A stretch of 32,882 nucleotides of DNA, from IMG/VR virus record IMGVR_UViG_2721755663_000004; one strand, written 5' to 3'. A program made the translations under genes and the position numbers. Within the stretch, counting starts at the first letter, position 1; each line of letters starts with the position of its first letter. Origin of the DNA: a virus (lineage: Duplodnaviria > Heunggongvirae > Uroviricota > Caudoviricetes). Positions 31,083 through 32,882 of this stretch are shown here, piece after piece. Under the pieces are notes generated by a model that was not told the DNA's origin, searched no databases, and worked only from the letters and a program-made list of their open reading frames with translations.

Positions 31083-31430
31083 TTACTCCTTTTTGGGTGC
31101 ATACACGTTGTTTATCCGTTCAATATGAATAGTTACATCCGGGCTTTCTAAGAATAAGAAGTCAATCAAATGACCAATGAGAATGCAGGCATCATTAATA
31201 GAGGACCTTGTGACTTTAATCCCTCCATGACTGCCGTGATTCCCCAACCACTTTAACGCCATGAATGCATCTTTATTTGGTCCCAGTTTATCTGAATAAT
31301 ATGTGATTCTTTCATGCGTAGAAAGACGTATTATCTTGCCTTTAACTGTTTTCTCTCTTGGTACATCAAGACTATCAAGCATCATCTCCAGTATGGTTCT
31401 CATGTGAAGTGGTTTACTGAATTTGGCCAC
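31083..31430 (-). pseudogene. 5'-truncated gene fragment (115 codons); N-terminal 9 codons and GTG start supplied by the IS911 left end
   Basis: ORF ...HMRTILEMMLDSLDVPREKTVKGKIIRLSTHERITYYSDKLGPNKDAFMALKWLGNHGSHGGIKVTRSSINDACILIGHLIDFLFLES...; upstream reading frame runs into the IS terminal sequence TGAAGTGGTTTACTG beginning at about 31405; low-GC. Domain assignment (possibly DUF4145-like) is from memory and tentative. Confidence 0.45.
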
Positions 31431-32465
31431 CTGAACAGAGGTGATATGCTCACCTCAGAACAACACAGGTGCCATAATGAAAAAAAGAAATTTCAGCGCA
31501 GAGTTTAAACGCGAATCCGCTCAACTGGTCGTTGACCAGAATTACACCGTGGCAGATGCAGCCAGCGCTATGGATGTCGGCCTTTCCACAATGACGCGAT
31601 GGGTGAAACAATTACGTGATGAGCGGCAGGGAAAAACAACCAAAAGCCCTCCCCCATTACCCCGGAACAAATTGAAATCCGTGAGCTCAGGAAAAAGCTA
31701 CAACGTATTGAAATGGAAAATGAAATATTAAAAAAGGCTACCGCGCTCTTGATGTCAGACTCCCTGAACAGTTCTCGATAATCGGGAAACTCAGGGCGCG
31801 TTATCCTGTGGCCACTCTCTGCCATGTGTTCGGGGTCCATCGCAGCAGCTACAAATACTGGAAAAACCGTCCTGAAAAGCCAGACGGCAGACGGGCTGTA
31901 TTACGCAGCCAGGTACTTGAACTGCATGGCATCAGCCACGGCTCTGCCGGAGCAAGAAGCATCGCCACAATGGCAACCCAGAGAGGCTACCAGATGGGGC
32001 GCTGGCTTGCTGGCAGACTCATGAAAGAGCTGGGGCTGGTCAGCTGTCAGCAGCCGACTTACCGGTATAAACGTGGTGGTCATGAACATGTTGCTATCCC
32101 TAACTACCTTGAACGGCAGTTCGCCGTGACCGAGCCAAATCAGGTGTGGTGCGGTGATGTGACCTATATCTGGACGGGTAAGCGCTGGGCGTACCTCGCC
32201 GTTGTTCTCGACCTGTTCGCAAGAAAACCAGTGGGCTGGGCCATGTCGTTCTCGCCGGACAGCAGGCTTACCATGAAAGCACTGGAAATGGCATGGGAAA
32301 CCCGTGGTAAGCCCGTCGGGGTGATGTTCCACAGCGATCAAGGCAGTCATTATACGAGCAGGCAGTTCCGGCAGTTACTGTGGAGATACCGGATCAGGCA
32401 GAGTATGAGTCGGCGTGGAAACTGCTGGGATAACAGCCCAATGGAGCGCTTCTTCAGGAGTCTGA
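31405..32465 (+). mobile_element. IS911-like (IS3 family) element, defective: intact left end, orfA with frame disruption, orfB truncated at the 3' end; right inverted repeat absent
   Basis: Left terminus TGAAGTGG... at 31405; OrfA N-terminus [54 protein letters not shown]; slippery A AAA AAG at 31730-31736; OrfB DDE region (...[35 protein letters not shown]...[10 protein letters not shown]...) ends abruptly at about 32462. Confidence 0.8.
31477..31731 (+). pseudogene. IS911 orfA, frame-disrupted after about codon 58
   Basis: From ATG 31477 the frame gives ...[19 protein letters not shown]... then stops; the canonical continuation [39 protein letters not shown] is open in another frame, implying a net +2 nt insertion in the A/C homopolymer runs around 31636-31655. 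Confidence 0.6.
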
Positions 32466-32479
32466 ATGAAGTGGTCTGA
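31730..32479 (+). pseudogene. IS911 orfB (DDE transposase), 3'-truncated and reading into integrase sequence
   Basis: The -1 frame from the slippery site is open through ...[14 protein letters not shown] then NEVV-stop in integrase-derived sequence (stop 32477-32479). Confidence 0.7.
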
Positions 32480-32882
32480 TATCGTAGATGGATATCTTTA
32501 TGTCGAGCAAAGCAAAACAGGCGTAAAAATTGCCATCCCAACAGCATTGCATGTTGATGCTCTCGGAATATCAATGAAGGAAACACTTGATAAATGCAAA
32601 GAGATTCTTGGCGGAGAAACCATAATTGCATCTACTCGTCGCGAACCGCTTTCATCCGGCACAGTATCAAGGTATTTTATGCGCGCACGAAAAGCATCAG
32701 GTCTTTCCTTCGAAGGGGATCCGCCTACCTTTCACGAGTTGCGCAGTTTGTCTGCAAGACTCTATGAGAAGCAGATAAGCGATAAGTTTGCTCAACATCT
32801 TCTCGGGCATAAGTCGGACACCATGGCATCACAGTATCGTGATGACAGAGGCAGGGAGTGGGACAAAATTGAAATCAAATAA
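32466..32882 (+). pseudogene. int: Lambda-type tyrosine integrase, C-terminal 138 aa only (5' about 650 bp of the gene missing)
   Basis: [138 protein letters not shown] is essentially the lambda Int C-terminus; the frame is closed by TGA immediately upstream of 32466. Confidence 0.85.

Follow-up and report, generated by a model that had tools for sequence, protein, structure and literature searches.

An ISEc52 fragment joined to int in a defective lambdoid prophage at attB-lambda of Escherichia coli D9: a probable scar of IS-driven decay

The dog Escherichia coli strain D9 carries a lambdoid prophage of 35 kb at attB-lambda, with int on the ybhC side and tfa on the bioA side, in which the whole early region is missing and a fragment of an insertion sequence (IS), ISEc52, is fused to the 3' part of the integrase gene. 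We have analysed a window of 32,882 nucleotides (nt) from this prophage, and with modest confidence we interpret the fusion region as a scar left by the IS-driven decay of a prophage of lambda/HK97 type, in which the junction between the IS and int arose by a transposition-linked event. The scar consists of two junctions, i.e. J1 (31404/31405), where phage DNA meets the left end of the IS, and J2 (32464-32467), where the interior of the IS meets int (Table 1). The two occur together in strains D9 and D4 and nowhere else searched; J1 was found only in these two strains among 5,426 complete E. coli genomes, and an exact match to J2 is absent from a 185,579-species genome collection and from JGI metagenome contigs. 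The pattern of decay is of an ordinary, known kind, and the unusual detail is the breakpoint.

Table 1. Prophage features and their coordinates, numbered from the first letter of the window
Feature	Position	Strand	Remarks
Late arm, complete	1..26206	-	lysis genes, Rha, Nu1, A, W, B, C, D, E, FI, FII, Z, U, V, G, T, H, M, L, K, I, J, lom, stf, tfa
cosN	23162-23173		reverse complement GGGCGGCGACCT, upstream of Nu1
nin/Q segment, retained	28281..30826	-	hypothetical genes, ybcN, ninE, ybcO, rusA, ylcG, quuD; PGAP annotation of the D9 record
DUF4145 gene remnant	31083..31403	-	last 106 of 250 codons, from internal Met145; Pfam PF13643 E=4e-09
J1	31404..31405		phage DNA / IRL tip; early-region loss of 11.7 kb ends here
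ISEc52 fragment	31405..32466	+	nt 1-1060 of 1250; without IRR and the last ~62 orfB codons
IRL, 36-bp left terminal inverted repeat	31405..31440	+	starts TGAAGTGGTTTACTG...; same sequence as in the full copies of 1585m1 and ECCTRSRTH03
orfA, HTH regulator frame	31477..31781	+	Pfam HTH_Tnp_1 E=1.4e-09
A6G slippery heptamer AAAAAAG	31730..31736	+	programmed -1 frameshift, giving OrfAB
orfB frame, truncated	31808..32479	+	DDE core retained; runs 13 nt into int, out of frame
J2	32465..32466		dinucleotide AA common to IS (...GTCTGAA/GAACG) and int (...GCGAAA/TGAAG); D9 aligned with four full IS-int loci
IS-tip mimic TGAAGTGGTC	32467..32476	+	native int sequence; 10/10 with IRR tip, 9/9 with IRL tip; IRR reverse complement TGAAGTGGTCAACAAAAAC...
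int remnant, lambda/HK97-type integrase	32466/32467..32882	+	codons 219-356 plus stop

The extent of the loss was measured against strain ABW_A33, whose intact sibling prophage matches D9 at 100% identity over the 1,205 bp left of J1. Relative to this prophage, 11,688 bp are missing from D9, comprising int codons 1-218, xis, exo-bet-gam-kil, the repressor/cro/YdaT module, O, P, ren, and the first 144 codons of a DUF4145 gene that is 753 bp long in the intact relatives IAI1 and ABW_A33 versus 321 bp in D9. The interval from the IS to the nin genes holds the remnant of this gene, a theta-like pseudogene and two hypothetical genes, and nothing else. An earlier note, made from the letters of this DNA alone, had described a deletion scar in which an IS truncated in the middle of orfB is followed by int from about codon 219, with the whole early region missing. 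All of this is borne out: its coordinates lie within 2-4 nt of the alignment breakpoints, and alignment to the HK97 and lambda int genes gives Met219 to the stop. The note had also proposed comparison with related prophages at the same att site, which yielded the intact ABW_A33 and a series of ISEc52-eroded siblings described below, and had allowed that the early genes might lie elsewhere in the same prophage; we looked for them, and the whole stretch from attL to attR is devoid of xis, recombination, repressor, cro, cII, O and P genes. On the other hand, its picture of one junction fits J2 only, as the early genes end at a second junction, J1, formed by a clean IS end.

What remains is a defective (cryptic) lambdoid prophage in the usual sense, bounded by att sites at a known attB and with genes arranged in lambdoid order (int'-IS-nin-Q-lysis-Nu1...J-stf-tfa), from which genes essential to the phage cycle are gone. 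Both attB-lambda cores (GCTTTTTTATACTAA) are kept, 35.0 kb apart (1847 and 36860 in L006). From Nu1 to tfa no coding sequence is flagged as a pseudogene in the annotation, and cos is present, in agreement with the complete packaging and morphogenesis arm claimed before. With the early genes and ori absent, the late arm free of pseudogenes and cos present, it is sound to conclude from gene content, as the earlier note did, that the D9 prophage would be unable to excise, replicate or hold immunity on its own. Its late genes, attL, attR, cos and Q can presumably be used only via a helper phage or through recombination with an incoming lambdoid phage.

The int remnant (138 of 356 codons) is of lambda/HK97 type: positions 32467-32882 match the 3' 416 nt of HK97 int at 100% identity and positions 27812-28227 of lambda (J02459) at 99.8%, and the product matches positions 44-168 of the 172 of the Pfam Phage_integrase profile (PF00589). 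A full lambda-type integrase has ~356 amino acids, with arm-binding, core-binding and catalytic domains and the residues R-K-H-R-H-Y. The N-terminal and core-binding domains are missing from D9, together with Arg212 in the numbering of lambda Int.

The IS fragment is 99.8% identical to full ISEc52 over 1062 nt, with two 1-nt gaps (blastn), and was also aligned to four full copies. It has the attributes of the IS3 family, namely a DDE transposase of the rve type (orfB matches positions 2-102 of the 102 of the Pfam rve profile, E=6.6e-32) and an orfA-orfB arrangement with a programmed -1 frameshift signal; the role of the A6G heptamer in producing OrfAB is established for IS911 and the IS3 family (PMC1636345). 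The NCBIfam IS3 transposase profile NF033516 is matched over positions 104-324 of 369 (E=2.5e-76), and the transposase is thus C-terminally truncated. Of the two terminal repeats of a functional member (5'-TG...CA-3'), IRL is kept, and IRR is gone with the last 190 bp, which makes this a fragment; its present flanks, where a member of the family would show a 3-4 bp direct target duplication, are ...CATG and AATGAAG..., both original flanks having been replaced by deletions. Without IRR and with its transposase truncated, the IS should be immobilised in D9.

The earlier note called the element IS911. Strictly it is ISEc52, the name given by PGAP, and a relative at 95.3% nucleotide identity of a copy that PGAP calls IS911. 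Since the ISEc52 IRR is in addition identical to the published 36-bp IS911 IRR oligonucleotide (PMC2909936), 'IS911' is a fair label at the family level. The IRL and IRR of ISEc52 share 25 of their 36 positions, among them the subterminal GGCCACC block. The allele was also considered as a marker of descent shared with ATCC 43896; this was ruled out, since 1,628 records carry it at >=99% identity and it is thus the common type. In D9, two single-base insertions near 31639-31647 interrupt orfA; D4 and all other copies lack them, and they are the sole differences between D9 and D4 across 28100-32882. Because D4 lacks both, they are either D9-specific mutations or sequencing errors, and a meaningful loss of the OrfA regulator was set aside for the same reason.

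At J1 the deletion starts exactly at the intact IS terminus, which is not so at J2. The sequence GGTTCTCATG, followed by GTGTTCACC in ABW_A33, is followed by TGAAGTGG in D9, so that a clean ISEc52 left end abuts the DUF4145 gene cut at codon 145. Perfectly clean ends of this sort are characteristic of IS-mediated events, whether adjacent deletion or IS-IS recombination, and not of microhomology joining. Recombination between two IS copies predicts a simple ISEc52 insertion in the DUF4145 gene; none was found in the 5,426 E. coli genomes, nor was J1 next to a complete IS.

At J2, IS nt 1058-1060 of 1250 are fused to int codon 218/219, the IS-derived sequence ending at 32464-32466 and the int-derived sequence starting at 32465-32467. 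The earlier note had read a gaa/tgaa microhomology here and had taken it to suggest illegitimate recombination. Neither point holds up: the unambiguous overlap is 2 nt (AA), and since overlaps of at least 2 nt are expected at ~16% of random junctions, it lends no positive support to random joining and carries no evidential weight for any mechanism. What argues for a transposition-linked event instead is the int side of J2, which begins with a unique copy of the IS tip, TGAAGTGGTC. This is the sole 10/10 match to a repeat tip on either strand in 21.5 kb of an intact relative, and it coincides with the J2 endpoint within 0-2 nt. The chance of a random endpoint falling in the 3-nt ambiguity window is ~0.4%, taken over the ~800 bp from an upstream IS to ybhC; the coincidence was noticed post hoc, so this nominal figure should be inflated perhaps ten-fold. 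Past nt 10 the mimic shows no similarity to the IS repeat, with matches at 15 of 36 positions overall, where the real IRL and IRR have 25 in common. Of the parts expected of a surrogate end, a repeat-like sequence thus lies at the junction, and the subterminal transposase-binding sequence is missing.

On the strength of the tip copy, a transposition-linked origin of J2 is favoured, as moderately probable, over random illegitimate recombination. We propose that ISEc52 would first have lain in or beside int in its present orientation, as it still does in sibling strains, and that the early region would have been removed from the IRL end, either as an adjacent deletion made by intramolecular transposition or through recombination with another copy of the IS. 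J2 would then have come from a transposition-linked event in which the transposase took the int 10-mer as a surrogate IS end. Breaks at the mimic and at or near IRR might have been resected and rejoined; alternatively, IRR might have been joined beside the mimic (figure-eight or IR-IR junction formation), and the resulting junction might have attacked the interior of the IS, with deletion of IRR and the 3' end of orfB. Several elements of this scheme have precedents. In IS911-type transposases the catalytic domain contacts the repeat tip and the N-terminal domain binds the subterminal region (PMC1636345, PMC7780238). Deletions driven by the IR-IR junction of IS30 have one endpoint at an IR edge, where they begin, and pathways of this type have been proposed for IS911 as well (PMC9333248). 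Furthermore, transposase-dependent deletions beside IS3-family elements show 2-4 bp microhomologies, with some endpoints within the IS, and it has been suggested that the transposase makes aberrant breaks at a distance from the IS (PMC9943667; bioRxiv 10.1101/2023.06.07.543989); 2-nt overlaps were not extended by the IS-excision enhancer IEE in vitro (bioRxiv 10.1101/2023.06.07.543989).

It is possible, and we put it forward tentatively, that J2 was left in nature by an IS911-type transposase acting on a 10-nt mimic of just the tip of its own end within lambda int, the IS having amputated its own right end. If true, a bare repeat tip without a subterminal binding site could act as a surrogate end in vivo, and every lambda/HK97-type int gene would carry a latent breakpoint for IS911-family elements. 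Counting against a transposition-linked J2, specific recruitment is not expected at a mimic without the subterminal sequence that the transposase binds. In the same direction, tip-like sequences were not enriched when 37 distinct right flanks of IS911/ISEc52 were sampled without bias from representative genomes (the best match averaged 4.8, against 4.5 in controls), so repeat-tip mimics are not a general attractor in nature. A general preference of IS911/ISEc52 for tip-like flanks was accordingly dropped, flanks such as GAATTGGTCTGA beside IRR having been selected by a chimeric IRR+int BLAST query. No intermediate turned up in the 5,426 E. coli genomes: a complete IS directly beside the mimic was not seen in either orientation, and the only arrangements were spaced 151-296 bp away, with 256 bp between IRR and TGAAGTGGTC in ATCC 43896.

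The main competitor is that J2 is a spontaneous, transposase-independent illegitimate deletion, made by replication slippage or end joining, which took away the right end of the IS and part of int and in which the tip match is coincidental; J1 and the early loss would still be IS-mediated. A 2-nt microhomology is compatible with such unguided joining, the absence of a transposase-binding sequence from the mimic and the lack of general enrichment of tip-like flanks speak for it as well, and truncated IS copies are frequent in E. coli annotations. Yet it has to accept that the single 10/10 tip match in 21.5 kb falls on the endpoint by accident (nominal chance ~0.004), and it gains nothing from an overlap that random junctions so often show; we therefore regard it as rather unlikely. 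The exact register of the 10-mer and the endpoint inside the IS would both be accounted for by a two-step homology route, in which a second ISEc52 (or an IS dimer) inserted into the resident orfB at nt ~1060 and a RecA-independent deletion took place between its tip and the 9-10 nt in int. Incoming copies would have been available, as ISEc52 sequence occurs at 16 places in D9. This route requires, however, an extra nested insertion that is unobserved: no nested ISEc52 at this position came up in the searches, as neither the genome nor the metagenome collections contain the junction pattern. Slippage is, moreover, inefficient between ten-base repeats that lie more than 1.4 kb from each other, and we consider the route improbable.

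The earlier note had also pointed to an assembly artefact across a repeat, with a prophage that is really intact, and the multi-copy nature of the IS (16-19 repeats in the D9 and D4 genomes) gives some reason for this, as do the two homopolymer-type single-base insertions in orfA of D9, absent from D4, which suggest some sequencing error. But the same J1 and J2 stand in two separate complete assemblies, the attL-attR interval is contiguous with the early genes absent, and the collapse of a repeat would leave a full-length IS with mismatched flanks rather than an IS cut at nt 1060 and fused to the middle of int. An artefact is thus very improbable.

Prophages eroded by ISEc52 at attB-lambda were found in ATCC 43896, 504838, L3_E36_ETEC, ECCTRSRTH03, 1585m1, Ec40743 and JNE170426. 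They resemble D9 in their chromosomal site, lambda-type int, IS family and variable loss of phage DNA across the IS, and the loss beyond the IS reaches sieB, genes of the exo region, a Dam methylase gene, a gene close to the lysis cassette, or P22-type capsid/portal genes. In the siblings the IS end is intact and abuts either int, of which 120, 132, 169 or 171 is the first codon kept, or xis, upstream of which the IS then lies; D9 and D4 are the only ones of the compared prophages at attB-lambda in which the IS has itself been cut, with int broken at codon 219. The differing int codons and the differing losses of phage DNA show repeated IS-linked erosion at attB-lambda. With at least eight strains carrying prophages eroded by ISEc52 to differing depths, this site offers a natural time-course of domestication. 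The usual way for lambdoid prophages to become fixed, helper-dependent gene reservoirs is to lose their excision, immunity and replication genes through IS activity. Having kept the complete set of virion and packaging genes along with cos, Q and both att cores, the D9 prophage may still donate late genes to incoming lambdoid phages.

Among known systems, J2 is close to the IEE/IS629 deletions and to the loss of ISApl1 from Tn6330, which likewise lie beside copy-out-paste-in IS, show 2-4 bp microhomologies and have some endpoints inside the IS that immobilise the remainder; ends at repeat-tip mimics are not reported there, unlike at J2 (PMC9943667; bioRxiv 10.1101/2023.06.07.543989). If J2 is transposase-dependent, it would be a natural example of the proposed 'aberrant cleavage remote from the IS' behind IS-associated deletions. 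IS911, a copy-out-paste-in member of the IS3 family, shares with ISEc52 the 36-bp IRR, the orfA/orfB arrangement, the A6G slippery site and the DDE rve core. Targeted insertion and surrogate-end events of IS911 were reportedly described by Loot et al. in 2002 and Polard et al. in 1994. As a second mode of target choice by IS911, insertion beside IS ends is reported (PMC9333248), which J2, lying at a repeat-tip look-alike, recalls; in the targeted events that have been described a whole IS is inserted beside a repeat, whereas in D9 the IS lost its own right end and the look-alike is without a subterminal site.

At the level of the whole prophage, D9 is comparable to the cryptic lambdoid prophages DLP12, Rac and Qin of K-12, which are also defective and have lost regulatory, replication or excision functions via deletions and IS activity. 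The nin-Q-porin-lysis segments of DLP12 and D9 even carry the same PGAP gene names (ybcN, ninE, ybcO, rusA, ylcG, quuD, essD and rrrD). DLP12 is located at argU, in contrast to attB-lambda for the D9 prophage; it keeps intD and xisD and has lost most of its structural genes, unlike D9, which lacks the entire early region. Compared with the K-12 cryptic prophages, D9 retains an apparently complete head, tail and packaging arm, together with cos and both att cores.

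The window matches the reverse strand of the chromosome of E. coli strain D9, a dog isolate, at 100% identity (NZ_CP010152.1, 1341934-1374815), and takes in nearly the whole of a lambdoid prophage that is integrated at the classical lambda attachment site. One copy of the lambda core GCTTTTTTATACTAA lies between ybhC and the int remnant, whose stop codon is the exact window end, and the other separates a diguanylate cyclase gene from ybhB/bioA; the cores are 35.0 kb apart (1847-36874 in the D9 locus, L006). This distance is ~72% of the lambda genome, and lambda headful limits are ~78-105% of the genome; the prophage would therefore be under-length for stable packaging even with helper excision and replication. 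The sensor-domain diguanylate cyclase gene (L006 34890-36221; D9 record 1374889-1376220) lies just beyond window position 1 and inside the att bounds, with the tail-fibre assembly gene on one side and attR on the other; it looks like a cargo gene, placed where lambda has its b region.

Intact sibling prophages occupy the same site in strains IAI1 and ABW_A33, and the latter is 100% identical to D9 across the 1,205 bp left of the insertion sequence (IS). After the DUF4145 gene of ABW_A33 (753 bp) come ren-like, P, O, YdaT, cro-like and repressor genes, then two accessory genes, and further on kil, gam, bet, exo, several small genes, xis and the whole int. When both D9 flanks are mapped onto ABW_A33, the loss in D9 amounts to 11,688 bp; the interval from the IS to the nin genes holds only the C-terminal 106 codons of the DUF4145 gene, a theta-like pseudogene and a pair of small hypothetical genes. 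The earlier note had allowed that the early genes might lie elsewhere in the same prophage, and none of the early functions seen in ABW_A33 is encoded between the two D9 att cores. From Nu1 to the tail-fibre assembly gene, no late gene carries a pseudogene flag in the annotation, and the gene lengths match those of lambda. Because the early genes are absent and the late arm is unflagged and accompanied by cosN, the prophage is predicted, in agreement with the earlier note, to be unable to excise, replicate or keep immunity alone, with its morphogenesis arm intact. The theta-like pseudogene is likewise annotated in both IAI1 and ABW_A33, thus its internal stop is older than the deletion. The porin gene is probably a lysogenic-conversion gene, and nmpC occupies the same position in DLP12.

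Features of the D9 prophage in window coordinates
Feature	Position (strand)	Description
IS repeat tip match	22659-22667 (-)	9-mer inside overlapping terminase genes (Nu1/nohD, large subunit)
cosN	23162-23173	upstream of Nu1
Porin gene	26934-28091 (+)	PGAP 'porin', OmpC/NmpC-like; intact; between Q (quuD) and lysis genes, opposite strand
Theta-like pseudogene	30823-31071 (-)	phage-borne HolE-like homologue of DNA polymerase III theta; internal stop
J1	31404/31405	DUF4145 gene remnant / IS left end
ISEc52 fragment	from 31405	left end of IS3-family element, 36-bp inverted repeat starting TGAAGTGG
orfA		within IS fragment; HTH_Tnp_1 domain
orfA insertions	31639-31647	two single bases, +A and +C
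A6G slippery heptamer	31730	within IS fragment
orfB		within IS fragment; rve (DDE) core complete
J2	32464-32467	IS interior / int codon 218/219
Mimic	32467-32476	native int 10-mer resembling the IS repeat tip

The earlier note had described one deletion scar; the scar is real, and it comprises two junctions, J1 and J2. At J1, where the early region stops, a perfectly clean IS terminus abuts the truncated phage gene, which is the trace expected of intramolecular transposition (adjacent deletion) or of recombination of two IS copies. At J2, 190 bp of the IS right end and int through codon 218 have been lost, leaving nt 1-1060 of the 1250-bp ISEc52. Alignment with four loci having a full IS followed by int places the IS-derived sequence up to 32466 and the int-derived sequence from 32465. 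The coordinates, the truncation within orfB and the int residue (about 219) proposed from the sequence alone were thus correct; the proposed gaa/tgaa microhomology shrinks to a shared AA, which is uninformative, since an overlap of at least 2 nt is expected in ~16% of random joints. The int fragment runs from Met219 to the stop; it has 100% identity with the final 416 nt of HK97 int and 99.8% identity with lambda int 27812-28227. It is not a functional integrase, because it is without the arm-binding domain, the core-binding domain and Arg212 (lambda Int numbering). The orfB frame enters int by 13 nt out of frame and then meets a stop (…RSLNEVV), and no fusion protein is made.

PGAP names the element ISEc52, with 95.3% identity to a copy that it labels IS911, and in the full-length ISEc52 copies that ATCC 43896 and 1585m1 carry at this att site, the right terminal inverted repeat (IRR) is identical to the published IS911 IRR oligonucleotide (PMC2909936); the earlier label IS911 is therefore fair at the level of the family. 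The D9 copy is an IS911-group fragment and, being without IRR, not a functional member. The orfA insertions, missing in strain D4 and every other aligned copy, are mutations specific to D9 or else homopolymer sequencing errors, and are given no biological weight. A variant tip, TGTTGTGG, replaces TGAAGTGG in some ISEc52 copies, at the left repeat (IRL) in ATCC 43896 (L002 ~6003) and 504838 (L005 ~5997), and at IRR in ECCTRSRTH03 (L004 ~7250).

Comparison with related prophages at the same att site revealed ISEc52 in or beside lambda-type int at ybhC in at least six different positions and both orientations (loci L002-L005, L014, L063 and L064, from other E. coli strains). The first retained int codon is 120 in JNE170426 and 169 in Ec40743, with the IS inverted relative to D9, and 132 in ATCC 43896, 504838 and L3_E36_ETEC and 171 in ECCTRSRTH03 (a divergent IS allele), with the D9 orientation; in 1585m1, also orientated as D9, int is whole and the IS lies upstream of xis. 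A group II intron (ltrA) also interrupts the IS of L3_E36_ETEC. Across the IS, phage DNA resumes variously at sieB, exo-region genes, a Dam methylase gene, a lysis-cassette-adjacent gene, or P22-type capsid or portal genes, and its loss differs by strain and is often very large. The pattern is one of repeated IS-linked prophage decay at one chromosomal site. The IS itself is cut only in D9 and D4; in all other strains compared, the IS end that adjoins int or xis is intact.

That J2 is an assembly artefact across a repeat, a possibility that the earlier note had raised, is extremely improbable: a separate complete assembly, of D4, has both junctions and differs from D9 over 28100-32882 solely by the two orfA insertions, and repeat collapse would leave the IS full-length but wrongly flanked, rather than cut at nt 1060 and joined to the middle of int. 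What sets J2 apart is TGAAGTGGTC, the sequence with which int starts there. Native to lambda-type int (…GCG AAA TGA AGT GGT CTG…), it matches the IS right-repeat tip at 10/10 and the left-repeat tip at 9/9 positions. No other 10-mer in 21.5 kb of the intact relative, on both strands, matches either tip, and this one is the exact D9 endpoint; an endpoint drawn at random from the ~800 bp between an upstream IS and ybhC would hit the 3-position ambiguity window ~0.4% of the time. Even after a roughly ten-fold discount for a coincidence noticed post hoc, this remains uncomfortable and strains a purely random model. The only other 9-mer tip match in the window, in the terminase genes, has no associated rearrangement. 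We lean slightly towards a transposition-linked origin of J2. The N-terminal domain of the IS911 transposase binds the subterminal part of the repeat and leaves the tip to the catalytic domain (PMC1636345, PMC7780238). For IS30, and by proposal IS911, the IR-IR junction is highly reactive and its deletions begin at the edge of one repeat; a second IS911 target-choice mode, insertion adjoining IS ends, has also been reported (PMC9333248). Transposase-dependent deletions beside IS3-family elements show microhomologies of 2-4 bp and can reach into the IS; a suggested cause is aberrant breakage by the transposase at a distance from the IS (PMC9943667; bioRxiv 10.1101/2023.06.07.543989). The start would be an ATCC 43896-like arrangement, in which IRR is followed by 256 bp of int and the mimic, its tip facing IRR. 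Breaks at IRR and the mimic might then be followed by resection into the IS and rejoining; or the IRR 3' end might be joined beside the mimic, as in figure-eight formation, and the resulting pseudo-junction attack the IS interior at nt 1060. We infer both routes entirely, and either would yield the observed J2 sequence exactly.

Random illegitimate recombination, which the earlier note had preferred to clean transposition, is hard to apply to J1 with its clean IS end; for J2 it is a possible, though rather unlikely, origin. Several observations count against a transposase role. The mimic is without the subterminal binding sequence, matching a real end at 15/36 positions vs 25/36 between the real IRL and IRR; tip-like flanks are not enriched among 37 distinct right flanks sampled without bias; intermediates of J2 formation are absent from 5,426 complete E. 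coli genomes; and J2 was not found in representative-genome or metagenome collections. The tip-like flanks beside IRR that chimeric BLAST returned from other genomes reflect selection by the query. Against random recombination stands the position of the sole 10-mer match. A nested IS plus 10-bp homology is an improbable source of J2.

The tip-only IS-end mimic at a breakpoint is the one feature of possible interest to transposition specialists. The D9 element is otherwise a defective lambdoid prophage of the well-known DLP12/Rac/Qin type, unusual only in that the whole late arm is kept and the whole early arm is gone.
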